Shown in pieces: positions 3,541 to 58,275 of a stretch of 64,000 nucleotides of DNA. Position 1 is the first letter of the stretch. Each line of letters starts with the position of its first letter. The stretch lies in NCBI GenBank assembly GCA_964016885.1, contig OZ024743.1, positions 334,924,001 to 334,988,000 on the forward strand, given 5' to 3'. The translations under genes and the position numbers were made by a program. Under the pieces are notes generated by a model. It was not told the DNA's origin. It did no database searches and was given only the letters and a program-made list of their open reading frames with translations. The stretch is from Eledone cirrhosa (taxonomy: Eukaryota).

Positions 3541-4537
3541 TCTTGTGTTATTTTGTTTGCCTGTATCTGTGTGCTGTGTCTAAAAAATGGTTGGGGTAGA
3601 GGGGTTGTCTGCTGATGTTAAGTGGTCTCCTGTGTTTGTTATATTCCTTGTTGTTGTAAAATGTGGTTCGGGTTGGTGGTTGTAGATTGAATGGGGTGTT
3701 CCTGTACTGCGAGTATGGGTGTGTGTTTCTATGTGCCATGTTGTATTGTGGTGTTATAGGTGGCCTACGTTGTTGGTTGTATCGTGTGGTGTGGGTTTGT
3801 TGTGTATTGTGGAAGAGAGAGTTGAGAAAATGGTAATTACCTTGCTGTCCCCCTTGAAGCGGGGAAGTTGTTACATCTATCATGGCGGTGGTATCTTTTC
3901 CCTATGTTTGACGATGAGGCATCCGCGTAGTAGTTGAGTGATTTGGTATGGTGTCTCCTTGAAGGGGGAAAGTTGTAAATGTCATTCTGGGGGAGATGAT
4001 TTCTTGGGTTTTTGTTCCTTCTTATGGTAGCGAGGTTGGGAAGTTCATCTTCGGTGCGGTGCTTCCTTCTTCGTTTGTTAGAGGCTTGGGGGTTTGAGAA
4101 GTTGTGCGGTTTAGTTATGGGTTTTCCTATTTTTATGAACGGGTTATTGGAGGTGTAATCCGTTTGAAAAGTCGATTCATAGTGTAGGAACCAAGCGGCA
4201 CTTTTTTCCCAGCGTTGAAGGGATTTCAGTTCTTCTCTGTTGCAGTCCCCTTTCCATAATTTGGAGATCTTCTCTACCTTGGGGCCTTCAGTTTTGTTGT
4301 TGATTTCCAGGAGGATCTCTTCATCGATGGTTTCGATTTTTTCCTCATTTGTTTGGGCCCTCAGTTTAAGAAGTTCAATATCTGTCTTCATTTTTTCCAA
4401 TGCCATTCTTTCCCTAAGGTGTCTTTGAGGTTCGGGTTCATTTGGAATGGACTTTATTTGTAGTTTATGGGGGAGAGTTAGAGGGGTTGAGTTAAGCCAT
4501 TTTTCATATATCTCTGCTTTGTTGTGATTTTGTATCA

Positions 4538-4591
<54 letters not shown>

Positions 4592-7600: not shown

Positions 7601-7878
7601 GGCGAAGGTCGAGGTAGTGTTTGAGGGCGCGTAGGCCGTCGGCGTGGGGGATGAGGGTATAGAGGGACTTGATGTCTAGGGTGAAGAGGAAGGGCTGTGG
7701 GCCGGGTGGGTAGGTGAAGGAGTCGAAAAGGCGCAGGGCGTGGTTGGTGTCGGAGATGTGGGAGGGGAGGGTGGTGACAAGGGGGCGAGGATGGAGTCGA
7801 GAAAGGCGGAGATGAGTTCGGTGGGGCAGTTGCAAGCGGAGACGATGGGGCGGCCGGGGTTGTCGGGTTTGTGGAGTT

Positions 7879-7880
<2 letters not shown>
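4689..7880 (-). mobile_element. Second Neptune-like PLE, 5'-truncated, C-rich coding strand, ~1.6 kb low-complexity 3' UTR
   Basis: [61 protein letters not shown] and CTECSATYVGQTGRRLADRFTEH across several frameshifts (~6346-7880). (TA)n on both flanks. Confidence 0.9.
4772..4815 (-). ncRNA. Minimal hammerhead ribozyme motif
   Basis: Minus strand: ac CTGAGGA a gggc ttat gccc GAAAC GTC gt. Stem II 4 bp, palindromic ACGT stem III, weak stem I. Confidence 0.75.
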
Positions 7881-7936
<56 letters not shown>

Positions 7937-8381: not shown

Positions 8382-8454
<73 letters not shown>

Positions 8455-8460
<6 letters not shown>

Positions 8461-8620
8461 AGATCAAAAGATGTTTAAAAGAGTTCCAAGTATTTTATTA
8501 TGCGCATTTCAAAAACAAATATCATCATGGGATGATATTTGGTTTTCATCAGATAAAATAGGGAGACATGATATGAAGCTTAAAAACACTTGCGAGCAGT
8601 GAAGTGTAAAATCAACATAT
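8455..8620 (-). mobile_element. Solo 3' end of the PLE family at 40818-46142, with intact hammerhead (8491-8560)
   Basis: Aligns by eye to 40818-40987. Minus strand: tattttat CTGATGA aaaccaaatatcatc ccat gatgatatttgttttt GAAAT GCGC ATA ataaaata. Confidence 0.88.
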
Positions 8621-9509: not shown

Positions 9510-10472
9510 AGTTTCAGGATGCTAACCACTGATGGGTTAAATTTTTGTCAACATTAGGATTGTTAGCTCTTTCAAGGTATTTTCCATACAGAGGCTTTTC
9601 TTGCCATTTCTTAACCAGTTCCTCTAGCAGTTCTTTCTTTGCAGTTACTTTTACCTGCCTTGCTTTTCTATGTTTTTGATTTCAGCAGTAAAGGGAACTT
9701 CTGAAATTTGTAGTTCATTACTTTATCTTTGTGCATCTTTTGTAATGGAGTATGATCTTTTTATATTTTCATGTTTCAAAACGAGTTTGATCATCCAGCC
9801 TCCCTTAGATATGTAGATAATCCAATTGTTGCAGTTTTCAAAGCAATATCTAACTGGATTAATCCACGCCCTCATATCAGAGGGAGATATATTATATCTG
9901 TATCTGCCTGAGGGTGATGCATTCTGTGCATGGTTAAGAATTTTCTAATATTTGTATAGATCCTACGGATCTCTGTGCTTGACCAGTTGATGGCATTGAA
10001 ACTGTAGGTTACTACTGGTATGGTAAGGGTGTTTATGGCATCGATCCTATTTCTTGCATTCAACTCCGTTCTTAAGATTGCTCTTACTCTGCAGTAACAT
10101 TCCTTCCTTGTCCTTTCCCTCATTGTCGAGTACTTGATACCATCTCCTTCACAAACACCTAGATATTTGTAAGTTTCCTCTTGATCAAGTTCTCTTATCA
10201 CATTCCCCCGATCAAGATTAATGTCTGAACTTCTCAGCAGCTTTCCTTTGGTGAACGTTGCTTTGGCGCATTTATCTAGTCCAAACTCCATTTTAATGTC
10301 ATCACTGAACTGCTCCACAGTGGATAATAGCCCTTGTAATTGCTCATCACTTTTTGCAAATAGTTTCAGGTCATCCACGTAGAACAAGTGATTAATGGTT
10401 TTGTCATAGACTTTATATCCAGGTTTTGTTTCAGTGAGCATTTTACTTATTGGTATAAGTGCGGTGCAGATA
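9510..10472 (-). mobile_element. R4/Dong-like LINE RT fragment
   Basis: INHLFYVDDLKLF, DIKMEFGLDKCA, YKYLGV, LNARNRIDAINT in ORF 9872..10441; degenerate continuation to ~9510. Confidence 0.85.
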
Positions 10473-13135
10473 AATTATTATTATTATTATTGTACTTTGA
10501 GTCTCAGTCATTGATGTTAGTTAACTGGAAAGTTTGTTGAAATGAATATCAAGCCACTACCTGCAGCCTCAGATATTCAGGTTGTATCGGAGGGTTGTTG
10601 CTGTTCCCAGCAAGCATGCTTTTTGAAGCGTTCCAAAAAGCGTGAAGGGGCCAATTTTCTTTAACCATCTCTGGAAACGTTTCGAGATAGTACCTAGTGG
10701 CAGTTCCAAATCCTTTTTACCTCCCACTTTAAGTCCTGGTATCGGTTAATCCCCCCCCTTCCTTCTCTTGCACTCTCGGAATTTACTGCACTTATGGCAT
10801 TCCTACTGTTCAGATGTGACTTTAATACGCTCCTTACTCTCCGAATATATTCAGTTCTTATCAATTCCTTCGTTCTTTTGTTCTTGATGTCATCAAACTC
10901 CAGAACACTCAAATACTCGTATCCTTCTTCAGAGTCAATTTCCTTTATCATCTCACCTGTTGGTACCTGGATTCCGTTACTTCTGCTCAACTTACCCCTC
11001 TTCATCACAATGACTCCACACTTACTAATACCAAATTGCATACATATATCATTGCTGAAAATACGGACAGTGTCAACAAGCACATCCAACTCCTTCTCAC
11101 TCTTCCCGAAGAGCTTAAGTTCGTCCATGAAGAGGAGGTGATTGATGGTAAGCCCTCCCTTTCCCAACCCGTATCCTGCTCTCACTTTTCGCAGTACACT
11201 GGTCAGGGGCAACAGGGCAAGGACAAACAACAGAGGGGACAGACTATCTCCCTGGAAGATACCTCTCTTGATCTTCACGCTTCCCAAGGATTCTCCAGTT
11301 GATGTTAACTCTGTTTCCCAGGACTTCATACTTTTGCCCAACAACTGTCTGATGTTATCTGCCACCTTGAAGATCTCCAGGCTTTTGGTGATCCAAGAAT
11401 GAGGCATCATGGCAAATGCCTTTTTGTAGTCTATCCATCCCATGGCAAGACCAGTGTGTCTCCTCTTGCAATTCCTCATTACCATCTTATCAATAAGTAA
11501 CTGGTCCTTTGTACCACGTGACTTCTTTCGGCATCCTTTCTGTTCGTCCGGTAACAAGTTGTTTGTGTGGAGGTGATGGTAGATTTCCTCAGACATAATG
11601 CTTGTCAACAGTTTCCATATTACGGACAGACATGTGATAGGTCTATAGTTGGTAGGATCATTACCCTTGATTCGGTCTTTCATTATCAGAACTGTGGTAC
11701 CTTTTGTCAACCACTCTGGTACCTCACCTGACATCAAGCAGTCATTGAACATGGTTGTCAGTTTCGGGTGGAGGGATGTTATATTTTTAATCCAATACCC
11801 CTGCACACCATCTGGGCCTGGTGATTTCCAGTTGGTTAGTTTTTTGGCCTGCCCCTTTAAAGTTTCAACTGTGATACTCAAATCAGTTTGTTGGTGTGCC
11901 TGTTCACTAATCTCCTTCTGTACTGTCTCAACCCACACTGCCTGGTCATTATGTTTAACATCCTGCTCCCATATTCCTCTCCAGAATGTTTTAGTTTGTT
12001 CCGCCTCAGGGATCAAGTCGTTGCCTCTTTCTTTCCCTTCAAGCTGTCCAAACAGCATCTTCTGGTTGTTCTCGAACATGCGGTTCTTTCTATACTGACT
12101 GACTCTGTTCTCGTATCGCCTGATTTTTGCACTCTTTGCTACAATGCGTTGCTTCAGTTCCTCTACGATAATATTTAGCTTTTTGCTCCTAGTTTTGTAC
12201 TTTATTTCCAGTCTATTTTTAGTGTCTATGTTTTTTTGTGTCCCATTCAGTAGGGACTCAAGCTTTCCAATGTCATTTCTTATTTCCCTGATTTGGCCAC
12301 TCAGTCGTTTCTTCCACCAAGGTTTTGATCTTTCTTGTCTGTTGTTTCCTCTCGCTTTTATACCAAGTAGTTTCCTCACCGTATTTGCTGTTGCTTTGAG
12401 GATATTATTGCACTGGTGAAGGCTCCTCGCCTCAAGGTATGTGATCACTTTGTTGACCTTAGCTGTTGTTTCTTTTAACTTTTTCCTGTCTACTAATCTT
12501 AGGTTCATAGGTCTCCCACTATCATTGTTCAATTCATCTACCACTAAGTTCAGGATATCAACCAAATCTTGTCCTAGCCCGTCAGCATTCATCTCCTCAG
12601 TGGCCGTATTATTTATCTCAGCATTCAGATCATTGTCTGCTTCGGATTGTTCCTCCGTTCTCTCAACCTCTTTACCTTCATTTCCCACTGGCTCGTTTGC
12701 CTGGCATAATCCACTCTCCATTTCCAACCTAATCTCTCTGCTCAGTTCCTCCAGTTCCAGCTCGCTTATCCACCCATTAGTTCTTATTACCCGAGCCTGC
12801 CCGGCCAATTTTTGTTCATCTAATTTAAATAGACCAATCTCGTTCCAGATGTTATGCATCCGTTTCCTATAGCCTTTCTCCTTGGGGTTACTCTTCAGGT
12901 AACATTGCATAACAGTTCTATTCAATTCTTTCGTCCAGTTGGTTCTGGTCCCTTTCCTTCTTCTTCTTCCGCCGACACCAGCAGTATTTGGTTGACAGCC
13001 AGGTCCCTGCTGCTGAGCCAGGGAGCACCTGTTGGGTGAGAGTCTGTCACATGACATTCTAGTCTCCATTTCACCGTTATTCGAACTGTTTAGGTTCGAC
13101 ATTTAAACACTCTTATCAAGGATTGGCGAATGTAT
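10473..13135 (-). mobile_element. R4/Dong-like non-LTR retrotransposon, internally deleted, (TAA)n 3' tail
   Basis: 802-aa ORF followed by a remnant C-terminus (LQKACLLGTA) and (TAA)n at 10473-10490 on the minus strand. Dong elements are known to target TAA repeats. Confidence 0.88.
10694..13102 (-). CDS. R4/Dong-like reverse transcriptase ORF, probably inactive
   Basis: WKSPGPDGVQGYWIK, NYRPITCL, EQKGCRKKSRGTKDQLLIDK, GIFQGDSLSPLLF, NHLLFMDELKLF (catalytic DD reads DE). The post-RT region appears deleted at AVNS/ESAREG. Confidence 0.88.
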   Translation of the reverse strand: MSNLNSSNNGEMETRMSCDRLSPNRCSLAQQQGPGCQPNTAGVGGRRRRKGTRTNWTKELNRTVMQCYLKSNPKEKGYRKRMHNIWNEIGLFKLDEQKLAGQARVIRTNGWISELELEELSREIRLEMESGLCQANEPVGNEGKEVERTEEQSEADNDLNAEINNTATEEMNADGLGQDLVDILNLVVDELNNDSGRPMNLRLVDRKKLKETTAKVNKVITYLEARSLHQCNNILKATANTVRKLLGIKARGNNRQERSKPWWKKRLSGQIREIRNDIGKLESLLNGTQKNIDTKNRLEIKYKTRSKKLNIIVEELKQRIVAKSAKIRRYENRVSQYRKNRMFENNQKMLFGQLEGKERGNDLIPEAEQTKTFWRGIWEQDVKHNDQAVWVETVQKEISEQAHQQTDLSITVETLKGQAKKLTNWKSPGPDGVQGYWIKNITSLHPKLTTMFNDCLMSGEVPEWLTKGTTVLIMKDRIKGNDPTNYRPITCLSVIWKLLTSIMSEEIYHHLHTNNLLPDEQKGCRKKSRGTKDQLLIDKMVMRNCKRRHTGLAMGWIDYKKAFAMMPHSWITKSLEIFKVADNIRQLLGKSMKSWETELTSTGESLGSVKIKRGIFQGDSLSPLLFVLALLPLTSVLRKVRAGYGLGKGGLTINHLLFMDELKLFGKSEKELDVLVDTVRIFSNDICMQFGISKCGVIVMKRGKLSRSNGIQVPTGEMIKEIDSEEGYEYLSVLEFDDIKNKRTKELIRTEYIRRVRSVLKSHLNSRNAISAVNSESAREGRGGINRYQDLKWEVKRIWNCH

Positions 13136-15629: not shown

Positions 15630-17641
15630 GTATTTACTATATAGAGAGAGAGGAAGGGGAGAAGAATTAGGAAGTAGAGGGACAAACGGGGATGGAGGGA
15701 GGGGTAAAGATGGAAGGATTCCTCGATCAGTTTTGATTCGTAGACTTGATGTCGTCAATTTACAGTGTAGGGAGTTAAAGATAATTAAATCGTTTATAGT
15801 AGGAGAGAGATAGAGAAGGGGGAGGAAATAGAGAGATAAATATATATATATATAAAAAAAGAGGGAAGAGAAAAAAAAAGAAGAAAAGAAAAGAGAACAA
15901 AAAAAGGGGATAGAAGAAAATAAGAAAACGAAAAAACAGAAAATGAATGAAGGAGGAGAGAGGGACATAAGTATTGGTTACTCTGGGTAATTAAAGGGGT
16001 TAGATTCAATAAGAGGGTAGAAAGTTTAAGTATATTCAGTTTGTCAGGTGGTAGTATTAGGAGGTTAAGGGTTCGATTTGCACTTGTAGTGCGAAAACTT
16101 TTCTTTAAGTCTATGGTTGCAATAAATTAATCTTTCAATTTTATTGTTGAGTAACTTATTCTTCGAACTCAAAATGTGAAACAGTTCAAGGTCACATAAC
16201 CGAGAGCTTCTCATACCACTCCGATATGCAGGCGCGTTCGATAGTTTTTTTTCCAATTCAGGGTGTATTGATGGTTACTTTCCCTCAGTTGCCAGGTCTT
16301 GTTCGCAAGGGTAGTTACATAACGATGCTGGGAATGTTTCATTGCGTAACGATGGGTATACCAACGAGCTTTAACTGTATTCCCAGTCGCCCCGATGTAA
16401 TACCACTTCTGATTGTCTGATTCGACCGTGCATTGGTAAACCAGGTTAGAATGCATACATTCATTACACAATGGATATGTTTCAGGTAGGTCGCAGTTAC
16501 AATTCTTGTCATGGTTCTTCTAGTGGGTGGTTGTGTATTAGATATTCTGTTGTGTTCGATGGTAATTGTATTGTTATTGTTATAAATTTGTGTTCCGGTG
16601 TTGTTACGTATCTTTTTAGCGTTGAGCATCTTAATGTGTGCATCTCTGTTTGGTGCAGTGGAGTAAGATAGTCTGATAGATGTAATGTTAGGGATTTTGC
16701 TGTATCTATGTGAATCTGGAAAGTGCTTATTTATTATTCTAAAGAAGGTAGCGGGTAGGTTGGTACCAATAGAGGTGTTAAATATGGGGTTATACCAAAT
16801 ATATTTTCTACTGCGTGACCTCTTTGATTTTGATGTATTTCTATTTTCAGTTTAATTGTTAGTTCTAAACTTAAATGGGTGTGTGCGTGTGTTTCTGGAG
16901 TTTGTGTTATGCCTATTCGTGTGTGCTTTGCGGAGGCTTTCATCTATATATTCTACTCTATCTAGGTGACCTGCCTTATCTAGTGTGGTATTGTAGTAAT
17001 CCGCGTGTTCCTCAAAGATTTGTCGGTTAAACGAGAGGCGGGAGATCCTAAGGGGTATGCTGCGTGGAACGGACTTAATTATGGAGATTGGGTGGGTCGA
17101 ATTACAGTTGATGTATGCTAAGTTTTCATTATTCTTGTGAAAAGGTCTTATAAGTCCCGTAGTTAGGTTAAGCATCGCGTCTAGAAAGTTAACTATTTTA
17201 GTGCTATATTCATACGTTATGCTAAGGCTTAGTTTCTCGAGAGTCTTTTTAATATTCTTGTGCAGCCTTTCTATGCTCTGGTTATTTGGGTTCTTAACTA
17301 GAAAAAGGGCGTCATCTCTGTAGATTCCACCATGAAGGTAGCTAAATTCTCTGGGCTATGTAAATACCTACTAAATCCGTGACCTGAACCGAGTCATTAG
17401 CCCCCATCGCGATGTCAAAGTCATCTAATCTATCCTTACGTTCCCAATATTCGTTTTCAAATTCAATTATTGTTTTCCTAGCAGTTAATATAATGTTTAT
17501 CTCGTCGTCTGTCAGGTCAAAATTGGCTTTGACGAATGCTAAGGCTTTATCCAAGGTATTGGGTTATATAGAGGAGTAATAGTCGTTAATGTCAAATTGT
17601 ATAAACTTAGATACTTTTTTGTTAGCTATACTGTTAAACCA
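15630..17641 (-). mobile_element. Degenerate 5'-truncated PLE (GIYRDD-type RT + GIY-YIG), related to the 41-46 kb family
   Basis: KFIQFDINDYYSSI, ILTARKTIIEF, FDIAMGANDSVQVTDLVGIY, GGIYRDDALF, VNFLDAMLNL and NLVYQCTV..YYIGATGNTVKARW, with stops and frameshifts. Confidence 0.88.
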
Positions 17642-20752: not shown

Positions 20753-21867
20753 AAATGAAAGGATTACAAAGGAGAATATATACTGTTAGAACATGTTTAT
20801 ACAAAAGCACCTACGTACGTTTCGTCCGAAAAGGGCTTCTCAAGGGCATACACATCTAGAGAGTGTTCAGTATAGAACTCAGAACGGGTTTTAAGAAGAT
20901 AATCACATCGAAATTCATTCTTGATTCAAACAGACATGGTTGTTATTGTCACAGAGCAAGGGCAGTAACTCTGCCCGGTGTTTGAATAAATTTCCCTAAA
21001 TGGCTTATTATCCGTTCACATGATGGTTGTTTTCCACTACTGTTTTATGGGTGCCACTTAACTGTTGCCTAGTTGAGCCGGATCTAAGAGGCATAGTTGG
21101 TGTACAGTTATGCAACCTGCTCGCCGGTGCGTTATGGTTTGGTGCAAGGGGACCCAGTTTATGGTGTTCATGTATCAACTGGGGTTCAACCATATAATTA
21201 CTGTTGTATTCTGTGTCAGCAGTTTATCACAGATTCTGCTCTGCTGTTGATGAGCTCTGGGGGTGCTCTTACGATATGGTAAAGTTCCATGAGGCAGGGC
21301 TGGCAATTCCTCTTGAAGTTGTACGGTTTTGCCCTGCTGACAATTTTCCAGTATGTAGAGAAGTTAATGTTGGAGTCTTTCAATGTTGTGATTTAGTTGG
21401 CGAGTGATGTAGAGTATCTTAGATTCTTGTTTCTAAAAGAGTGGAGATGCGTTCGATATCTAGTTTTGAACGAGCCAGAGGAGGCCCCTATATAATGCTT
21501 AACGCTATTATGGCTAGTTAAGGTGCACCTATTAATACCATTGTCTGTCAGGCAGCTTCCAGCTCGACTAGGCAACAGTAAAGTGGCACCCATAAAACAG
21601 TAGTGGAAAACGGATAATAAGCCATTAAGGGAGATTTATTCAAACACCGGGCAGAGTAACTCCCCTTGCTCTGTGACAATAACAACCATGTCTGTTTGAA
21701 TCAAGAATGAACTTCAATGTGATTATCTTCTTAAACCCCTTGTGGGTTCTATACTGAACACTCTCTAGATTTGTATGCTCCTGAGAAGCCCCTTTCGGGC
21801 GAAACGTACATAGGTGCTTTTGAATAAACATGTTCTAGGAGTATGTATTCTCCTTTGTAATCCTTTC

Positions 21868-21871
<4 letters not shown>
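20753..21871 (-). mobile_element. 5'-truncated PLE (GIY-YIG only) with inverted copy of its 3' UTR
   Basis: HYIGASSGSFKTRYRTHLHSF..YSTSLAN at 21190-21555; inverted arms 20753-21082 and 21558-21871. Confidence 0.87.
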
Positions 21872-24711: not shown

Positions 24712-24749
<38 letters not shown>

Positions 24750-24751
<2 letters not shown>

Positions 24752-24800
24752 GAACAAGTATGACCCCGACGGCAGAGCTCAAGCCGTTTCGACGGCTATT
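24750..24800 (-). mobile_element. ~50 bp solo 3' terminus, same family as the 48727 palindrome
   Basis: gaccccgac.gc.gagctcaagccgtttcgacggcta is shared; (TA)n on both sides. Confidence 0.75.
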
Positions 24801-25536: not shown

Positions 25537-25800
25537 ATATTATCAAGAAAACGAAAAATCAGTGATGCATCTGGACTTTGTTTATTTCGTGTTACAAATG
25601 CTTCGCCGGCATGTAGCTCGAGTCATGGTCCCTGTATGGATATGGCTGATTCTACTTCTGCGGGTTCTTTCTGAAAGAACCCGCAGAAGTAGAATCAGCC
25701 ATATCCATACAGGGACCATGACTCGAGCTACATGCCGGCGAAGCATTTGTAACACGAAATAAACAAAGTCCAGATGCATCACTAATTTTTCGTTTTCTTG

Positions 25801-25807
<7 letters not shown>
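25537..25807. repeat. 271 bp near-perfect palindrome
   Basis: 135 bp arms around a 1-nt centre (25672, tttc-t-gaaa); one mismatch seen. Confidence 0.95.
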
Positions 25808-30114: not shown

Positions 30115-31711
30115 TAACAACTAACAGTGCTGCGATCGAATGTGGCTTTTTAGCCCAGCCAATGATCTACAATGCCTTGCACAGAGTCGGCAACCAAAAC
30201 ATTCACTGGGAATAGTCGGCTGTGGTTGGAATTCGTGTACTTTTGCATGTCGCTTGAGCCCTCCTGCTGATTTTCATTCTCTACCACATGTTTGGCAAGC
30301 ATGATGAGTAGCATCTCCAACAACAGCCTGGTAGTCAACCACTGGTCTTACTTTATGACTGCGAAGATGACTTTCGAGTCCAGCTTTGCTTAGGCAGAGT
30401 CTCGCACAGACGCTGCATGTCAGCACCATAGGAGGACCCTCGCCGTCTGGAAGTGCAACAGCAATGCCCTTCCTCACATCCCGCTATACTATCTCGTGTG
30501 CGATTCGAGATGCCTCAAAGGCAACTTTTCCCTCATATACAGTCTTTCTCCATTTATTACGATCAGCAGCAATATTTTCCCATGTATCAGCAGCGATGTT
30601 AGCGTCTTTCAGAGAGGCTTTCAAGGAATCCTTATACCTCTTTTTTGGTTTATGTGGCGGTCGTTTTCCTTTAACCAACTCTCCATAGAAGAGTTGTTTT
30701 GGTATTCTAGAATCCTTCATCCTGGCAAGGTGACCACTCCAACGGAGTCGTTGCTTAAGCACAAGAGCTTCTATACTGTCACACATAGAGCTTTCCAAAA
30801 TCTCGACATCACTGATGTGGTCCCTCCAGTGAACGCCATGGATCCATCTGAGACACATCTGATGGAAACGCTCCAATTGCTTAAGGTGGTGTTGATATGT
30901 GACCCAGGTCTCGCAAGCATAAAGAAGACAAGCGAGTACACATGCCCTGTACACCTTTACCTTTGACCTCCTGCATATGCCTCGCCGACCCCAGAGTCGC
31001 CTTTCTAGCTTTCCGAAAGCATCACTTGCTTTCCTAATCCTAATCCTAAGTGAGATTTCACTGTCAAGGTTGCCGTATCGATTGACAGTGCTTCCCAGGT
31101 AGACAAACTGATCAACCACTTCAAGTCGTTTGCCATACACATAGATGTTTGGTTCAGTGTACTGCTTACTAGGGGCAGGTTGGTACATGACGACGGTTTT
31201 CTTGAGACTGACAGTCAAACCCAGGGCAGTGCAAGCGTCAGAAAATGCATTCAAAATGTGCTGCATATCACTCTCTGTGTGCGCTACAATATCGCAATCA
31301 TCTGCATACAAGAGGTCTCTTATGATTGATGTAAATACTTTTGTCTTTGCAGCAAAGCGCCTGATGTTAAATATGCTGCCTGAGGTTCGATATCGGATGT
31401 AAACACCATGCTCGCAATTCCTGAATGTAATACAGAAAACCATTGCAAAGTATATTGCAAACAGGGTCGGTGCTGGAATATCCCCCTGTTTCACTCCATT
31501 TTTTACTGAGATAGGCTCCGACATGTTACCTCCGACATTAACCCAAGCCTTCATGTCGTCATGGAAAGACCTAACTAAAGCAAGGAACTTATCAGGGCAA
31601 CCAAGTTTCTGGAGAACCTTCCATAATGCATCTCTGTTGACAGTATCGAAAGCCTTTGTCAGATCGACAAAAACCTGATACAAATCCAAGCCTTGTTCAA
31701 TGCACTTCTCC
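29742..31711 (-). mobile_element. 5'-truncated RTE LINE (RT + three C2H2 fingers); 3' UTR interrupted by microsatellites
   Basis: FVDLTKAFDTVNR, GVKQGDIPAPTLF, LLYADD, FVYLGS, LLYACETW, LRWSGHLARM, PKQLFYGEL; 3' terminus at 29742-29790. Confidence 0.92.
30121..31689 (-). pseudogene. RTE RT ORF continuing in frame through two stops into three C2H2 zinc fingers
   Basis: Stops at 30484 and 30274; fingers CSVC..HLRSH, CQTC..RHAKVH and CRLC..HIRSQH; final TAG at 30121. Confidence 0.88.
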
Positions 31712-32875: not shown

Positions 32876-33497
32876 GGTTTGTCTGTGTGTTTACATACAG
32901 AATAGCTGGATACTCACAGTAAAGTAACCAGTGAAAGACTTGGTACATCTACATATGTATACGTGTTTGTATTCATATGCATACTAGTATTTCAGTATGC
33001 ATATGTAGATGTACATTTTTTAACTTAATTGTTTAAGCGTCAGTCATACAAAAGTGAGTTACAAACGAAACGAAATTTAATTTCGTTTCGTTATTTGTTT
33101 TTATCGTCTCCGTTGAACCGGTACGTACTCACACTCTATGCAAATTAGTCTGCTCACTACTAATTTTCATAGAAAAAGCATATAACGATATGTGCTTTTA
33201 CGATTCTCCAGAAAGGCCGGTAGATAGGTAAATATTGCTGATGAGTTGTAACAACAACGAAACTAGTTCAATATTCCTTGTCTGGCTTTCTGGAGAATAG
33301 AGGAAAGGTGTTTCCTCAAAAACCAGTATGACTCTAAAAACCGGTTTGTCTGTGTGTTTACATACAGAATAGCTGGATACTCACAGTAAAGTAACCAGTG
33401 AAAGACTTGGTACATCTACATATGTATACGTGTGTGTATTCATATGCATACTAGTATTTCAGTATGCATATGTAGATGTACATTTTTTAACTTAATT
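32876..33497 (+). mobile_element. Retrozyme-like non-coding tandem unit, family A1 (467 bp period, ~1.3 copies)
   Basis: 32876-33030 recurs at 33343-33497; one hammerhead; ends in (TA)n. Confidence 0.8.
33231..33275 (+). ncRNA. Type I hammerhead ribozyme (family A1)
   Basis: aatattg CTGATGA gttg taacaa caac GAAAC TA GTT caatatt; outer stem attctccagaaaggccgg (33203) / ctggctttctggagaat (to 33298). Confidence 0.93.
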
Positions 33498-33661
33498 ATA
33501 TATATATATATATATATATACTTAGGTTAATAGGAGTTAGGTATTGTATACCCGTGTCCCATTAAGGTATTGGCAGCATAATAATTAGCTCTATGCTTTG
33601 GAGCAGAGCCGTATATATGAAAAAGAACACAAGAGCGTCTACAACATCAACAGATTTTTAT

Positions 33662-33710
33662 TGGCTTACAATGTTTCTTCCTTACGTAACCGTAGGATTC
33701 GTCAGAGCTA
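33662..33710 (-). ncRNA. Hammerhead motif in a PLE-type 3' end (33521-33860)
   Basis: Minus strand: tagct CTGACGA atcctacg gtta cgtaaggaa GAAAC ATT GTA agcca. Confidence 0.82.
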
Positions 33711-33935
33711 TAAAAGGGGTTTGATTGGTGTTATGTACTCTACCAACCAAATATTAAAGAACAAAGAGTAAAGAGAGTAAAGAGCAAAAGTGGGTGACGA
33801 TAAGTCTAATTTGGGTGAGGGAGGGTGGGGTGTGGGTCCTTGTTTTTGGAGGCTGTCTGGACAGACAGCCTCCAAAAATAATGGTCGCTTCTAATAGGGT
33901 ACGTCAAAATTATTTATAAAACTGTTTATATATTG

Positions 33936-34000
33936 TATTTTATCTGACGAAGGCATGCCATATTTTAATTTGGTATCCCTGAAATATGTATAATAAAATA
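33936..34000 (+). ncRNA. Hammerhead motif in a PLE-type 3' end (33879-34130)
   Basis: tattttat CTGACGA aggcatgcca..tggtatccct GAAAT ATGT ATA ataaaata. Confidence 0.85.
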
Positions 34001-34127
34001 AATATGGTTTTATAAATATAGTTTCCATTTATTTAATATCGTATATCTACTCCAAAAACTTGTCGAGTGCTTTATATCAGTTATAAAATATTTACTTCTT
34101 GTATCCCAAGAATTTTAAATAAAACTT

Positions 34128-34183
<56 letters not shown>

Positions 34184-35720: not shown

Positions 35721-36737
35721 AACTTTGAATAACTTTGAAATGTTTTGGCCAGTATTGGCCCAGGCCATGTCTAACTTAATACCACCACCTGGCGAAGTCT
35801 TTCAATTCAGGATTTGGGCACCATGGCCCATTCGAGAAAAGTATTACTGTTTGCGGAGACATATCCGGGTGTGGGTGGTTTGTCCGGATTACTTGGAGGA
35901 ATTTGTCCAAAGACTTCTTAAATTTTGTGTGGTCAGTTTCTGTTTTGACGTCTCCTGGTGTGATGTTCAAGAGAGCAGGGCCAATTGAGGTGAAATAATT
36001 GTGCCGTATTGTTGTTATGAGTTGCGATTTAGATTTTTGTTTGGGACAGATAGCACGGGGCCCAAGCCTTGGGTGTATTTTGAAGGTGATACCAACATCA
36101 TTTGGGCAGTGCTGATGAAACATTTTCCACATCATGCAGATAATATAACGCTCACGGTGACATTGGAGTGAGTAAAGTTTCAGCTTTTCTAGTCGACCCC
36201 AGTAGTCAAGGTCTGGCATGCCATTTATCTTTTTCGTGATTGCCTTTTGGGGAGGTTCAAGTTTCATGATACTTTGTTTCGTGTGGGGAGACCACAGTGG
36301 ACAACAGTATTCAAGGTGTGGTCGGGCAAAAGTGGAGAAGAGAAGGGTAATGGTGTGGGAATCTCTCGACGGGAAGGTTCTGAGGATCCAGAAACACAAT
36401 CTGAGGGCCATGTCAACTTTGCTGCTTATATGCGTAGCCCAGCTTATGTTGTTGTCCACGGTTACTCCCAAGTCTCTGATGTTGTTAGATGCCACGAGAG
36501 TTTCACCGGAGGGAAGGGAGTACGTGAGTTTCAGAGCATCCTCTTTTCCAAAGTGGATCAGTTCGAATTTGTCTTCGTTCAGTAACATGTTGTTCTTTTC
36601 CGCCAATTGGGTAACAGCCAGTAGGTCTGACTGAAGGCTTATCCGCTCATCCACGCCATTGATGACCTTTTAGAGCTGGGAATCATCAGCGAAAATTCTA
36701 ATGTTGCTGGATTTGATGATGTCAGTGATGTCATTAA
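35721..36737 (-). mobile_element. 5'-truncated CR1-group LINE RT fragment
   Basis: [65 protein letters not shown]; one frameshift near 36680. Confidence 0.88.
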
Positions 36738-40624: not shown

Positions 40625-40737
<113 letters not shown>

Positions 40738-40855
40738 GTAGGAGGTGAGTTTTATTGTATAAAGCAATGCAGATATCGGATAAGAAGCACTCTACAGTTT
40801 GTAGGATTGGAGTATGCATAATATAAGATCAAAAGATGGTTAAAGGAGTTCCATG

Positions 40856-40925
40856 TATTTTATTATGCGCATTTCAAAAACAAACATCATCATGCAATAA
40901 TATTTGTGTTTTCATCAGATAAAAC
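40856..40925 (-). ncRNA. Hammerhead ribozyme near the 3' end of the left arm
   Basis: Reverse complement of 46035-46104. Confidence 0.88.
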
Positions 40926-41940
40926 AGGAGAACATGATATGAAGGCTAAAAAACACTTGTGGATAGTGCAGTTTTAAATCAACATATGAAAAGTGGTTTT
41001 AGATTGATGTGTGATATTGGGAAAGATATTTTATTTAGAGAGGGGGGGGTGGAAAGGATGAAAAGGGAAGGAGATGAGAGGGAGAGATGGGTGATAGAGA
41101 GAAAGAGATAGTTTTTATAACTGAGAGGAGATATATTGTTTTACATAGAGAGGTTGAAACCGTTGGAAGATAATGTATAAATTAAAAATTTTGAAAATTA
41201 ACGAAGGGAGGATATGTGCGAGGAAAAAATATTTTATTTAGGGAGGGGGGTGGAAAGGATGAAAAAAAGGGGGAGGAGATGAGAGTGAAGGTGGAGAGGG
41301 AGAGATGGGTGATAGAGAGAAAGAGATAGTTTTTATAACTGAGAAAAAGTTATATTGTTTTAACATAGAGAGGTTGTGAACCGTTGGAAGATAATGTATA
41401 AATTAAAGGAATTTGAAAATTAACGAAGGGAAATTATGTATGAAGATAGAGAGAAAAAAATAATAATTGTGGATGAATATTCTAACGTCAAAAAAAGAAA
41501 TGTATGTATTGTGGCAATTTCAAAATTAACGAAGAGAAAAATTATTAAGGTTTGTGTGTAGAAGGATTTGAGAAAAATAATGTGAAGTTAAAGTTTGTAT
41601 ATTGAAGGAATTGATAATATATGCGAATAAAGAGTTGATATGTATTAATAATGAGTTCGTTGATGGGGAGAAAAAAATAATAATAAATTAAGGATGAAAT
41701 TGAGATTAAAAAGATTTATGATAGAGAGAAAAAATAATAATGATTGCGGATGAATATTCTTAATGTCAAAACAACAAATGTATATGTTATGATTTTACAA
41801 GGTGAAGATAGAATGAGGGTAATGAGTAAACTAGTATTATAGAGTGTATAAATTTAAAGTAAGGTAGATGGGTATATTTTAAAGAGGTGTATGTATATGT
41901 GCCTTTGAGAAAAGATTCTAAATTGATAAAGAATTGAATA

Positions 41941-43754
41941 TTAACTGTATACTTTGTGAAAAGTTCTATGGAATTTATGCAGGCAGATAGAAAACAAATC
42001 TGTGCGTCTATTTATTATAGAATCTAGGTTAGAGATAATGGTAAATTTTTCATTTAGGCAGAGATTACAGATTTTAGATAGAGAGCTGTTCAAGTATGAG
42101 GATGCAGAAGAAATCTTCTTCCAAAAGATGGTATATTTAATGTTTTTGTCTTTTAAGGACCATATGAGTTCTGAGAGAGCAGTGTTAGTTCTTTTAAGTT
42201 TGTGTTTGAAAGATGAATGATGATTATAGAGACGAGCTTTAAAAGAGGTGGAAGTGGAGCCAAAATAGGTGAAGGAATTGGTGCTAGTTATAATTTTACA
42301 TTCATAAATTAAGTTTTTATCGAGACAATGGTTGTTGAGAGGACATTTATTTTTAATGCGGCAGTTGCAATTAGAGAGATTATTAATGAGTGATCTAGTG
42401 TTATCTATAGAAGGAATTGGATTGGAGAAGTTGTTTGCGATAGGAATAATAGGAATAATAGTTTCTTGATTTAGAGTTGGATTATGAACATTTAGCGAAG
42501 TTGTGTTTGACGTTGTATTTGGGTTTACAGAAGTTAGCCTAGGGTTTACAATGACGTCGGGAGTACTATTACTGTTATTATGAAATTCAATATTGGAAGG
42601 AAGAGATTTAGTATTTAGTATTTTATTGTTGTGTTTAGAGATGATGTTGGAAATATTGGAGGATGTAGAATACGAACATTTGATGGTGTGTTTGTTAAAT
42701 ATTTTACTATAGATATGTGAGGGAGGGAAGCATTTATTTAAGGCACTAGAAAATAATTTAGGAATATTGTTATTAATAGAGATGGAGAAAGGAGCATTAT
42801 ACCAGATTATGTTTTTGTATCTAGGTCTTTTATTAAAATTATTGGAATGGTCATGATTAATTATTCTACTGTAAGTTTTTCTAGAATTTGTTTCTTTACT
42901 ATATTTGATTTTATCTGGATAGCCGGCTTTAGAAAGTGCGTTATTATAGTAATTGGCGTTAGCATCAAAGATGTTTTTATTAGAAGATATGTTAGATATT
43001 CTATTTCCAATATTATTAACTATAGCATTCTTGATATTGGTAGGATGGTTAGATTTAAAGTTAACATAATTAAGGTTCTCATTGTTTTTATGGTAAGGGT
43101 AATATAGGCCAGTGTCAAGATTAAGAGATACATCCAAGAAATTAGCTAGTTTGATACTATTATCAAATTCAATTTTTAGGTTATGTTGGTTAAAGAGATT
43201 ACGTATATTGTTCTTAATAATATTAAGGTTAACTATATTGCAATTTAGGATAGTAAAGAGTCCATCGTCACGATAAATTCCACCGCGAAGTTGAGGAATT
43301 TTCTGACTCAAAGAGTTCAAAATGAAGATACCAATTAAATCAGTCAATTGGGATGAATCGGATGCTCCCATTGTGATGTCGAAGTTGTTAGAGGTATCGG
43401 CTCTGGTCCAATATTCGTTGTTGAACTCTAGGATGGTTTTACGTGCGGTGAGGATGATGTGAAGTTCATCTGTGGTGATGTCAGAATATTTAAGTGCGAA
43501 AGATAGAGCATTATTGAGAAGTGAAGGCGAAATGGAGGAATGGTAGCTGGCAATATCAAATTGAATAAATTTTAGTTTGTTTTTATTATCCAATTTGTTG
43601 AACCAGCCAATCACTTCAGAAGTACCAAACCATAAATTTAGGTTCAAAGAAGAGAAATTAGAACTAACCTGTGGGATAATTCTATCCAAGATGGCTTTAC
43701 TAACAACCCCCAGATCAGATTTAGAGGGGGCGATTAATCTAACAGGTAGTTCAG
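41941..43754 (-). CDS. PLE RT-GIY-YIG, uninterrupted but N-terminally truncated
   Basis: PVRLIAPSKSDLG, FIQFDIASYHSSIS, FDITMGASDSSQLTDLIG, GGIYRDDGL, ANFLDV, IIWYNAPFS, CNCRIKNKCPL..C and NLIYEC..TYFGST. The track ORF's first ~30 aa are junction-derived. Confidence 0.93.
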
Positions 43755-43768
43755 TACCTGTTAGATTA

Positions 43769-45019
43769 AACCAACATAACCTAAAAATTGAATTTGATAA
43801 TAGTATCAAACTAGCTAATTTCTTGGATGTATCTCTTAATCTTGACACTGGCCTATATTACCCTTACCATAAAAACAATGAGAACCTTAATTATGTTAAC
43901 TTTAAATCTAACCATCCTACCAATATCAAGAATGCTATAGTTAATAATATTGGAAATAGAATATCTAACATATCTTCTAATAAAAACATCTTTGATGCTA
44001 ACGCCAATTACTATAATAACGCACTTTCTAAAGCCGGCTATCCAGATAAAATCAAATATAGTAAAGAAACAAATTCTAGAAAAACTTACAGTAGAATAAT
44101 TAATCATGACCATTCCAATAATTTTAATAAAAGACCTAGATACAAAAACATAATCTGGTATAATGCTCCTTTCTCCATCTCTATTAATAACAATATTCCT
44201 AAATTATTTTCTAGTGCCTTAAATAAATGCTTCCCTCCCTCACATATCTATAGTAAAATATTTAACAAACACACCATCAAATGTTCGTATTCTACATCCT
44301 CCAATATTTCCAACATCATCTCTAAACACAACAATAAAATACTAAATACTAAATCTCTTCCTTCCAATATTGAATTTCATAATAACAGTAATAGTACTCC
44401 CGACGTCATTGTAAACCCTAGGCTAACTTCTGTAAACCCAAATACAACGTCAAACACAACTTCGCTAAATGTTCATAATCCAACTCTAAATCAAGAAACT
44501 ATTATTCCTATTATTCCTATCGCAAACAACTTCTCCAATCCAATTCCTTCTATAGATAACACTAGATCACTCATTAATAATCTCTCTAATTGCAACTGCC
44601 GCATTAAAAATAAATGTCCTCTCAACAACCATTGTCTCGATAAAAACTTAATTTATGAATGTAAAATTATAACTAGCACCAATTCCTTCACCTATTTTGG
44701 CTCCACTTCCACCTCTTTTAAAGCTCGTCTCTATAATCATCATTCATCTTTCAAACACAAACTTAAAAGAACTAACACTGCTCTCTCAGAACTCATATGG
44801 TCCTTAAAAGACAAAAACATTAAATATACCATCTTTTGGAAGAAGATTTCTTCTGCATCCTCATACTTGAACAGCTCTCTATCTAAAATCTGTAATCTCT
44901 GCCTAAATGAAAAATTTACCATTATCTCTAACCTAGATTCTATAATAAATAGACGCACAGATTTGTTTTCTATCTGCCTGCATAAATTCCATAGAACTTT
45001 TCACAAAGTATACAGTTAA
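43769..45019 (+). CDS. Inverted duplicate: RT C-terminus + GIY-YIG endonuclease
   Basis: Peptide from NQHNLKIEF to the stop is identical to the minus-strand copy. Confidence 0.9.
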   Translation, partial: NQHNLKIEFDNSIKLANFLDVSLNLDTGLYYPYHKNNENLNYVNFKSNHPTNIKNAIVNNIGNRISNISSNKNIFDANANYYNNALSKAGYPDKIKYSKETNSRKTYSRIINHDHSNNFNKRPRYKNIIWYNAPFSISINNNIPKLFSSALNKCFPPSHIYSKIFNKHTIKCSYSTSSNISNIISKHNNKILNTKSLPSNIEFHNNSNSTPDVIVNPRLTSVNPNTTSNTTSLNVHNPTLNQETIIPIIPIANNFSNPIPSIDNTRSLINNLSNCNCRIKNKCPLNNHCLDKNLIYECKIITSTNSFTYFGSTSTSFKARLYNHHSSFKHKLKRTNTALSELIWSLKDKNIKYTIFWKKISSASSYLNSSLSKICNLCLNEKFTIISNLDSIINRRTDLFSICLHKFHRTFHKVYS

Positions 45020-46034
45020 TATTCAATTCTTTATCAATTTAGAATCTTTTCTCAAAGGCACATATACATACACCTCTTTAAAATATACCCATCTACCTTA
45101 CTTTAAATTTATACACTCTATAATACTTGTTTACTCATTACCCTCATTCTATCTTCACCTTGTAAAATCATAACATATACATTTGTTGTTTTGACATTAA
45201 GAATATTCATCCGCAATCATTATTATTTTTTCTCTCTATCATAAATCTTTTTAATCTCAATTTCATCCTTAATTTATTATTATTTTTTCTCCCCATCAAC
45301 GAACTCATTATTAATACATATCAACTCTTTATTCGCATATATTATCAATTCCTTCAATATACAAACTTTAACTTCACATTTTATTTCTCAAATCCTTCTA
45401 CACACAAACCTTAATAATTTTTCTCTTCGTTAATTTTGAAATTGCCACAATACATACATTTCTTTTTTTGACGTTAGAATATTCATCCACAATTATTATT
45501 TTTTTCTCTCTATCTTCATACATAATTTCCCTTCGTTAATTTTCAAATTCCTTTAATTTATACATTATCTTCCAACGGTTCCCAACCTCTCTATGTTAAA
45601 ACAATATATCTTTTTCTCAGTTATAAAAACTATCTCTTTCTCTCTATCACCCATCTCTCCCTCTCCACCTTCACTCTCATCTCCTCCCCCTTTTTTTCAT
45701 CCTTTCCACCCCCCTCCCTAAATAAAATATTTTTTCCTCGCACATATCCTCCCTTCGTTAATTTTCAAAATTTTTAATTTATACATTATCTTCCAACGGT
45801 TTTCAACCTCTCTATGTAAAACAATATATCTCCTCTCAGTTATAAAAACTATCTCTTTCTCTCTATCACCCATCTCTCCCTCTCATCTCCTTCCCTTTTC
45901 ATCCTTTCCACCCCCCCCTCTCTAAATAAAATATCTTTCCCAATATCACACATCAATCTAAAACCACTTTTCATATGTTGATTTAAAACTGCACTATCCA
46001 CAAGTGTTTTTTAGCCTTCATATCATGTTCTCCT

Positions 46035-46104
46035 GTTTTATCTGATGAAAACACAAATATTATTGCATGATGATGTTTGTTTTTGAAATGCGCATAATAA
46101 AATA
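46035..46104 (+). ncRNA. Hammerhead ribozyme near the 3' end of the right arm
   Basis: ttttat CTGATGA aaacacaaatattattgcatgatgatgtttgttttt GAAAT GCGC ATA ataaaa, ~40 nt before (TA)n. Confidence 0.9.
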
Positions 46105-46134
46105 CATGGAACTCCTTTAACCATCTTTTGATCT

Positions 46135-46172
<38 letters not shown>

Positions 46173-46176
<4 letters not shown>

Positions 46177-48596: not shown

Positions 48597-48842
<246 letters not shown>

Positions 48843-48919
48843 TACCCACTCTACTACCTCAAGTATTGAGTACTTTGGTGCGTTATGGTCCACCTGGTTC
48901 CTTACCACATTTCCTTCGT

Positions 48920-51832: not shown

Positions 51833-52033
51833 ATTAAGACTAAATAATGTATCCTGTTACTCTGGAATTTCGCATTATTTAGCCTTAATACATTGAATAC
51901 TAAAACTATTTTTGTATTGAGTACGCCTTTCTTGCACCCATCAACCATATATATATATATTGTTATGCTTTGGGAGGGTCATGTTGCCAATAAGAAACAC
52001 ACGCACCAGCTGCTTTCACTACAATTTATTATA

Positions 52034-52395
52034 AATTAAATTCATAAATTTAAGAATTTATAAATTTCCAGTTGGTTGGTTGGTTCTTGAAACAGACGAT
52101 TGTCAAAGTTCTTCCGTCACACGTTCTGTGACCTCTTCAGTGACTGGGGATACTTTTCTTTGTTTTTGTGCCTCTCCTTTGTTCTGTCCTACGCCATCTT
52201 GTTTGGCGTAGGACAGATGGCGTAGGGCAGAACGAAGGAGAGGCACAACATCAAAGAAAAGAATCCCCAGTTACTTAAGAGGTCACATAATGTGTGACGA
52301 AAGAACTTTGACAATATATGAACAATCGTCTGGTTGTGGAACCAACCAACCAACCAACTGGAAATTTATAAATTCTTAAATTTATGAATTTAATT
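52034..52395. repeat. Imperfect ~165 bp inverted repeat of a hammerhead-bearing 3' end, with central hairpin
   Basis: Arms 52034-52198 and 52215-52395; consensus gtca CTGAAGA ggtcac..gtgac GAAAG AA CTT tgac. Confidence 0.85.
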
Positions 52396-52462
52396 GATAA
52401 AACAATATCGGTTTCAACACACGTTTTCAGAAAAAGTATCTTGCTAAACAAATTTAGAAACG

Positions 52463-54737: not shown

Positions 54738-54885
54738 AATTATAAGAATAAATTAAAAGATGGTTAGAAAAGTTCCATGTATTTTATTATGGGCGTTTCA
54801 AAAACAAATATCATCCAGGGACGATATTTGCGTTCTCATCAGATAAAATAGGGAGACATGATATGAAGCTTAAAAAAAGACATTT
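54738..54885 (-). mobile_element. Solo 3' end of the 41-46 kb PLE family (hammerhead 54780-54850)
   Basis: Aligns by eye to 8455-8590; stem III mutated. Confidence 0.82.
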
Positions 54886-54905: not shown

Positions 54906-55395
54906 ATATTTATTAAAATAACAGATTAAAGTTTAAGCAAAGAATCGCTGCTTTCACTCTTAACGGGATCTTTTGAAATTATAAAAGTCAAACTGTGAAC
55001 GCAGAAGTAAATATTTCAAAAAACGTTGCAACCGAACCGCTCCACATAATGACGCATTATCTTCGTTTTTTCTGTCCATTGCCAGAGAACCTCTCCATGA
55101 ACCACCTAATAGAAGATTAGTCTACGACTTCATTTATACCATAAACGTGGTTTTGTCTTTGCGTGTAATTGTTTTCACCGCTCCAAAAAATGACGTATTA
55201 TCTTAGTTTTTTTTTTTCGTTCTTTGCCAGGGAACGTTTCCACGAACCAAATTATCGTCTTCCTGTCTTCCTCCAGTTGCAACGTTTTTTGAAATATTTA
55301 ATTCTGCGTTCACATATTGACTTTTTTAGTTTCACCGTTACGGGTGAAAGCACAGATTCTTTGCTTAAACTTTAATCTGTTATTTTAATAAATAT
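54906..55395. repeat. Inverted repeat with ~125 bp arms around an internally duplicated spacer
   Basis: 54906-55032 vs 55276-55395; the arm start also occurs at 37958 and 39369. Confidence 0.85.
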
Positions 55396-55820: not shown

Positions 55821-56096
55821 TGACTTCACTTGTAGTTCTAAACAATTTGATTAAATTTTATAATATTCTGATTTGGTAGATCTAGTAAGTTCTTTGTTAA
55901 CATTAATGGAAAGATTTTTAAAGATTTCTGGTTAACTGAAATCAGTTAACGAATGTGAAAAGGTTCTCCAGGAAAGTTAAGCAGGAATCTTTAAAAATCT
56001 TCCCACCGAAGTTAACAAAGAACTTACTAGATCTACCAAATCATAATATTATAATATAAAATTAAATCAAATTGTTTAGAACAACAAGTGAAGTCA
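55821..56096. repeat. Inverted repeat (~117 bp arms) with junction hairpin; right arm interrupted by a SINE
   Basis: 55821-55937 vs 55975-56096; gttaactga-aa-tcagttaac at 55931-55950. Confidence 0.87.
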
Positions 56097-56789: not shown

Positions 56790-57900
<1,111 letters not shown>

Positions 57901-58044: not shown

Positions 58045-58052
<8 letters not shown>

Positions 58053-58275
58053 ATACTTTGGGGGGATCATGTTGCCAATAGGAAACACACGCACCAGTTG
58101 CTTTCACTTCAATTTATTATATATTTATAAATTTATAAATATATAATAAATTGAAGTGAAACAACTGGTGCGTGTGTTTCTTATTGGCAACATGACCCTC
58201 CCAAAGTATAACAATATCGGTTTCAACACACGATTTCAGATAAAGAATCTTGCTAAACAAATTCAGAAACGAAAT
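58045..58275. repeat. ~173 bp palindrome (58045-58217) with unique 3' extension ending in (TA)n
   Basis: Arms ~86 bp; pieces of the same family occur at 51958-52033 and 52400-52466. Confidence 0.88.

Follow-up and report, generated by a model that had tools for sequence, protein, structure and literature searches.

The question raised by this locus is how a short perfect hairpin came to stand exactly where two inverted copies of a putative Penelope-like element (PLE) meet, and what it records of the way in which the 5' end of such an element is resolved. The locus lies in a 64-kb stretch of Eledone cirrhosa DNA, referred to below as the window, which is eukaryotic and contains many microsatellites and much retroelement debris. 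A young duplication of a 5'-truncated PLE, arranged head to head within a (TA)n tract, is centred on the hairpin; the arms of the duplication are 99.7% identical, and the whole fold-back unit measures 5.4 kb. Copy 1 (40818-43748, minus strand) contains a reverse transcriptase (RT) with YRDD, an N-rich linker, CxCX5C and GIY-YIG; its open reading frame (ORF) ends at 41941, and its 3' UTR contains a tandem duplication of ~220 nt. Copy 2 (43770-46142, plus strand) is the shorter, inverted copy, and the ORF remnants of both copies are open. The outer ends of the unit are asymmetric: copy 2 directly abuts the right (TA)n target flank (46140-46173), whereas copy 1 is separated from the left (TA)n target flank (40720-40737) by ~80 nt (40738-40817, minus strand), the putative 'tail' of the element. 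No second copy of this 80-nt segment was found in the window, and it showed no resemblance to the N-termini of the homologs.

The element was identified as a PLE by comparing its motifs with published descriptions, and the label is qualified accordingly. A single ORF holds the YRDD motif of the RT as well as a GIY-YIG-like motif at the C terminus; a Pfam search of the ORF gave no match, and the 308 protein homologs found at E <= 1e-30 are all unnamed. The CxCX5C linker is present, CxxC and CxH flank conserved E and N residues, and CCHH is absent as judged by eye against the CCHH-type PLE at 1264-1785. The RWK/DKT region is truncated in the element of the window; among 31 homologs of at least 650 aa, DK[T/S] was found in 28, DKG in one and RW[K/R] in 17. 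A pattern that we take to be the hammerhead core was matched in both 3' ends and in two related fragments. The matches in the 3' ends lie in the 3' repeat of copy 1 (40872-40918, minus strand) and in that of copy 2 (46042-46088, plus strand), where a three-stem-like fold is predicted; Rfam returned no hammerhead match at gathering or E-value thresholds. CxCX5C, CxxC/CxH and the lack of CCHH are given as features of the Hydra clade by Craig et al. (2021, PMC8557442), and the present element appears to share them, along with insertion into (TA)n and a candidate hammerhead core; by motifs alone, it would be assigned to that clade. The adjacent inverted, 5'-truncated copy and the presumed tail at one end are likewise in keeping with the PLE architecture in PMC8557442, although the tail is ~80 nt here and 30-40 bp there. 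A MITE or TIR DNA transposon was considered and rejected, as the arms consist of 2.4 kb of RT-endonuclease coding sequence and UTR. The linker between RT and endonuclease (44340-44590, with its mirror in copy 1) is of low complexity, rich in N, S, T and P, ~80 aa long and longer than that of most homologs, and recalls the N-rich inserts of Adineta vaga Penelopes (PMC3846280).

Other retroelement sequences are scattered through the window. Solitary 3'-end fragments at 8453-8620 and 54748-54877 are 83-88% identical to the main element and carry hammerhead-like cores and (TA)n flanks. Further remnants, all on the minus strand, occur at 1264-4538, 6345-7935, 9872-13102, 30484-31710 and 35776-36669; these include two PLE-like elements, with the CCHH-type endonuclease at 1264-1785, and LINE-like RT ORFs.

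The hairpin occupies 36 nt (43734-43769) and consists of a perfect 15-bp stem and a 6-nt loop, with no outward extension of the stem possible. The left arm (43734-43748) is the exact reverse complement of the right arm (43755-43769) around the loop (43749-43754). As the original prediction had stated, the left arm is genuine coding sequence: read on the minus strand, it encodes L-P-V-R-L-I in frame with the RT ORF, matches the RL motif of the homologs and forms the native 5'-most RT coding sequence of copy 1. The right arm is a copy of the left and leads directly into copy 2, with which it is collinear on the same (plus) strand. The loop is probably native element sequence; its two readings, T-E-L and S-S-V, score alike against the homologs and do not separate its orientation. 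No alternative template for the arm or the loop was found elsewhere within the 64-kb window. DNA folding of 43700-43800 gave a z-score of -4.74, and none of 200 shuffles was equally stable. In 200 Markov simulations of copy 1 the longest perfect stem was 12 bp, and no stem in copy 1 by itself reaches 9 bp. After microsatellites were masked, seven perfect stems of at least 14 bp (loop up to 10 nt) were counted in the window, and 20 simulated windows contained none. The predicted 15-bp hairpin is thus real and far beyond chance.

Whether the hairpin belongs to the intact element was addressed at the protein level, where 151 homologs were compared and 68 of these aligned without gaps across the hairpin region. 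Upstream of the RL motif, these homologs have D at position -12 (64/68), H at -11 (63/68) and K at -10 (66/68); position -7 is F in 58 and F, W or Y in 66 of the 68. The corresponding residues in the window are C, W, F and T, none of which occurs at its position in any of the 68 homologs. Judging from this alignment, an intact element cannot carry the hairpin, for the right arm occupies the place of the sequence coding for the DHKxxF motif of ~63/68 homologs; at the level of protein, the hairpin is therefore not part of a master element. Because the codon at -7 in the window is incompatible with F, W or Y, the native primer would be 4 nt or less, and at least 11 of the 15 bp would therefore have been newly templated. 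The best protein matches to the element are mostly 35-45% identical. A search for a near-identical family member produced a single match, of 39% identity, among 8000 candidates scored and nothing among 130 short candidates, and the family searches yielded no nucleotide-level master sequence. A decayed relative of the main element at 16247-17641 (minus strand), with 40-60% protein identity, is 5'-truncated just past the region of the native junction.

Comparison of the two copies located what is missing from the right side of the unit. Base 43770 of copy 2 corresponds to base 43190 of copy 1, and a 543-nt RT-coding stretch (43191-43733, minus strand; 181 codons, in frame) is present in copy 1 only, having been skipped or deleted on the right side; the 5' ends of the copies are 558 nt apart. 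The offset of ~575 bp originally proposed for the start of copy 2 needs correcting, as the skip is 543 nt and ~575 approximates the whole spacer with the hairpin (571 nt). Put most plainly, the junction is palindromic about a 6-nt loop, and 543 nt are absent from its right arm, beginning 15 nt from the loop. At the re-entry point the two sides share 1 nt of exact microhomology; TTAA occurs on both, but can be matched only if one additional A or one mismatch is allowed. That the fusion stays in frame on both strands is regarded as a coincidence with odds of 1 in 3, and no functional meaning is attached to it. Over 2376 aligned bases the copies differ by five mismatches and two one-base indels, all 3' of the stop codon, with no difference in 1250 nt of ORF; a sixth listed mismatch, at 43768, falls inside the hairpin arm. 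The confinement of differences to the UTR is significant when all ~6 events are counted (p = 0.011) and is not for the three clean substitutions alone (p = 0.11). The UTR also has twice the homopolymer content, and several of the arm differences are of homopolymer type. When polarised through the internal tandem repeat, two of three sites are derived in copy 1, an outcome that favours none of the models over the others.

Comparison of the window with itself revealed nine adjacent head-to-head units, three symmetric and six asymmetric. Inverted pairs 3.7-5.7 kb apart (15174/19256, 22007/26913 and 50546/56289), cross-matches among the internal repeats of the main unit, and three rows that were the short hairpins themselves were dropped from this census, and the nested pair 56980-57897/57224-57789 was counted once. 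The symmetric palindromes lie at 25541-25803 (loop of 1 nt, arm identity 99%), 58049-58213 (no loop, 95%) and 48730-48839 (loop of 6 nt). The last is part of a perfect 52-55 bp fold-back at 48727-48919 that sits between (TA)n runs and has a one-sided tail of ~80 nt. At its centre is what resembles a hammerhead stem II, with GAAA and a GUC site after it, such that the fold-back may have been primed by the ribozyme stem. A truncated relative lies at 24748-24798. In all three symmetric palindromes one arm abuts (TA)n and the other side has a tail of 61-85 nt, which is the outer design of the main unit. One arm at (TA)n and a one-sided extension of 30-163 nt were seen in seven of the nine units, and units with 5-20% arm divergence repeat the one-sided tail and (TA)n flanks.

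Junction stems were then compared among the six asymmetric units. A stem of at least 14 bp is present in two, the main unit and that at 52029-52400, which has a degenerate hammerhead-like core and a perfect 14-bp junction stem (52183-52217). This stem is followed by a 14-nt near-repeat, and the unit shares flanking sequence with that at 58.0 kb. The inverted units at 54910-55391, 55821-56096 and 56980-57897 have spacers of 37-243 nt; a 9-bp stem lies at the junction of the second (near 55938), and the junctions of the other two have none. The unit at 20754-21870, of a second family, is older (86%), has a similar endonuclease end and carries its tail on the longer arm; its junction has no hairpin. 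Stems are 6 bp or shorter in three of the six units. Within the window, stems are enriched at asymmetric junctions when the main locus is included (p = 0.009), but the enrichment is weak when it is left out, with stems of at least 14 bp in one of five units (p = 0.12) and of at least 9 bp in two of five (p = 0.02). In a further unit bounded by (TA)n, at 33521-34131, two hammerhead-core fragments unrelated to each other stand head to head, with a perfect 17-bp stem and a 2-nt loop (33843-33878) at their junction. A perfect 14-bp stem with a 1-nt loop at 33064-33092 is assigned to none of the inverted units. The main unit and those at 20.7, 52.0, 57 and 33.8 kb, and in part that at 48.7 kb, can be linked to PLEs through an ORF or a ribozyme-like core; for the remaining inverted units this identity is suggested by architecture.

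What kind of event produced the hairpin can be answered with high confidence. The inserted bases are an inverted copy of the sequence beside the end, as expected of snap-back synthesis, and the strand geometry fits; the hairpin itself is very probably of fold-back origin. The original prediction of a self-primed fold-back therefore holds as to the event, but the length synthesized would be 11-15 nt and not necessarily 15. The two continuations it had offered, a jump or the joining of a second cDNA, are the leading models for what followed, and later deletion within a palindrome has to be added as a third route.

The account we favour, at somewhat below even probability for the path as a whole, has fold-back, synthesis of 11-15 nt, release and resumption all occurring on one cDNA. 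The plus strand would then be a single nascent chain that runs through antisense cDNA, loop, a 15-nt sense copy, a skip of 543 nt and a sense copy to the end of the element. Target-primed reverse transcription would have begun in the left (TA)n and made ~3.0 kb of antisense cDNA (plus strand), including the 80-nt tail, before stopping inside the RT gene near 43754-43758. The free 3' end of the cDNA would next have folded over the 6-nt loop, paired through 4 bp or less and been extended to the 15-bp stem, a step to which the sequence points strongly. After release of the short product, its TTAA 3' end may have paired again, imperfectly, with a TTAA that lies 543 nt onward in the same cDNA, from where synthesis would have continued for 2.37 kb as second strand. 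The second strand would have ended at the usual end of the family, 80 nt before the start of the cDNA, and been joined to the right (TA)n. The polymerase for fold-back and resumption could be the PLE RT or a host Pol theta-like enzyme.

Several observations are consistent with this single-cDNA path. Because the symmetric palindromes share the outer design of the main unit, fold-back alone can give a tail-less end at (TA)n, and those palindromes are not easily attributed to two separate truncations falling on one and the same base. The tail is on the arm with the longer 5' extent in both of the asymmetric units that can be oriented (the main unit and 20754-21870), as expected if the longer arm is the first strand. 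Short junction stems recur in the window (14 bp at 52183, 17 bp at 33843 and 9 bp near 55938), which fits short synthesis followed by release. Palindromes in PLEs have also been read as self-priming on an antisense template (PMC3846280), and since cDNA is such a template, this supports fold-back of the cDNA. However, it should be noted that the path is weakened by the 1-nt exact microhomology at re-entry, by the three of six asymmetric units without a junction stem above 6 bp, and by the weak enrichment of stems once the main locus is left out.

The arm differences and the unit at 33.5-34.1 kb also weaken the single-cDNA path, and both bear on a rather unlikely but serious alternative, in which a pair of cDNAs arose from priming on the two strands of a single (TA)n target. 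The longer of them would have snapped back by 11-15 nt, and its TTAA end would have been joined to the 3' end of the second by synthesis-dependent microhomology-mediated end joining (SD-MMEJ; Pol theta type). Differences confined to the UTR, with none in 1250 nt of ORF, are what two RNA templates would be expected to give, although the bias is not significant for clean substitutions. Unrelated hammerhead-core fragments linked across a 17-bp hairpin in one (TA)n-bounded unit suggest joining of separate products, and copy 2 ends at the same point as the solitary family fragment near 8456. The Anolis Poseidon protein, a predicted dimer, nicks and extends both strands in vitro (PMC11167929), and the snap-back model of SD-MMEJ yields the same form of junction (PMC5728401). 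Against two cDNAs, symmetric fold-backs also end tail-less at (TA)n, so that separate priming is not required, and the microhomology is imperfect. The same final sequence would result if fold-back had made a full 2.9-kb perfect palindrome and 543 nt of its right arm were later deleted, leaving 15 bp that would be a remnant and would not tell how much had been synthesized. Instability is described for long palindromes (PMC7999016) and PLE copies often have microhomology-mediated deletions (PMC3846280), but the part of PMC7999016 available contains no direct statement on one-sided central deletion. This later-deletion route is improbable in our estimation: similar 14-17 bp stems are found at other junctions, and an arm divergence of 0.3% marks the locus as young. 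A deletion would moreover have had to leave the loop and 15 bp of stem in place, which counts against it because palindrome revision usually removes the centre.

Two further sets of explanations are very improbable. Near-identical inverted arms are typical of fold-back and amplification chimeras, and several of the arm differences at this locus are of homopolymer type, which would fit a chimeric long read or an amplification chimera. However, on either side the duplication ends where the element does, and the two flanks differ; the same architecture recurs in units whose arms have diverged by 5-20%, and the tail on one side and the flanking (TA)n agree with PLE architecture as published (PMC8557442); an assembly or library artefact is thus given very little weight. 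Equally little is given, taken together, to host break repair in an inserted copy (fold-back inversion), a hairpin native to the master element, and chance. Fold-back priming at double-strand breaks is known (PMC10622511), but the inverted arm here does not reach into the tail or the host flank; the loss of DHKxxF at the hairpin speaks against a native hairpin, and the folding z-score and simulations exclude chance.

The footprint itself has precedents. In the Penelope elements of A. vaga (Arkhipova et al. 2013, PMC3846280), palindromes of 18-38 bp at inverted junctions were read as self-priming on an antisense template, and the present locus shares with them a head-to-head inverted copy, a one-sided tail and a short junction palindrome (36 nt here). 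Those palindromes are described at pLTR 5' ends, whereas here the hairpin lies inside the RT ORF and is followed by a 543-nt skip, in an element with Hydra-clade motifs; its position within the ORF is why protein homologs reveal its non-native origin. Snap-back is also a named class of 5' junction in R2/PRINT insertions (PMC11371274, PMC11331408), where the cDNA similarly uses its own 3' end to start DNA synthesis with itself as template, ahead of 5'-junction formation; R2, however, is a non-LTR element whose snap-back product is joined to rDNA, while here synthesis would run into a 2.4-kb second arm. SD-MMEJ includes a snap-back branch with primers of 2-4 nt, such as TA/AT and GGTA/TACC (PMC5728401), and resembles the present case in its short primer repeat, limited synthesis, release and re-annealing, and the inverted repeat left at the junction; it is defined at chromosomal double-strand breaks, in contrast to retrotransposition intermediates and the 1-nt exact microhomology here. 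The available main text of PMC8557442 does not mention palindromes or self-priming, nor does the available part of bioRxiv 10.64898/2026.07.22.740005 mention junction hairpins. In the literature covered, which comprised main texts and few subscription papers, fold-back followed by a skip was not found described at base level for any Hydra-clade element. The claim of a mechanistic footprint of PLE 5'-end resolution is supported in its fold-back step, but as a footprint it had been described for PLEs in 2013 (PMC3846280).

Taken together, the locus adds a clean new instance to a kind of scar known from earlier work on PLEs and discloses no new mechanism; a single locus supplies an example but not a mechanism. 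The junction is an unusually clean record because conserved coding sequence separates native from newly templated bases, and the window offers symmetric and asymmetric sister structures beside it. The completion of PLE insertion and the formation of inverted repeats are described as an open task in PMC8557442, and the later steps await validation according to PMC11167929. Single-cDNA fold-back could be told apart from two-cDNA joining by counting stem lengths, primers and arm haplotypes across the genome. A broader and doubtful reading is that cDNA snap-back is the regular way in which head-to-head PLE structures arise in this genome, with the window holding a graded series: complete fold-back in three units, a skip after 14-15 nt in two, and a 17-bp fold-back with an unrelated element, which at 33521-34131 would have been primed from the other side of the same (TA)n. 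This graded series is the part of the window most worth following genome-wide. In the boldest reading, a PLE dimer would prime both strands, and the short snap-back would act as a sticky end that joins two cDNAs, with no host-templated second strand; if true, this would answer the old question of where inverted pLTRs and one-sided tails come from, and it would be countable across the genome.
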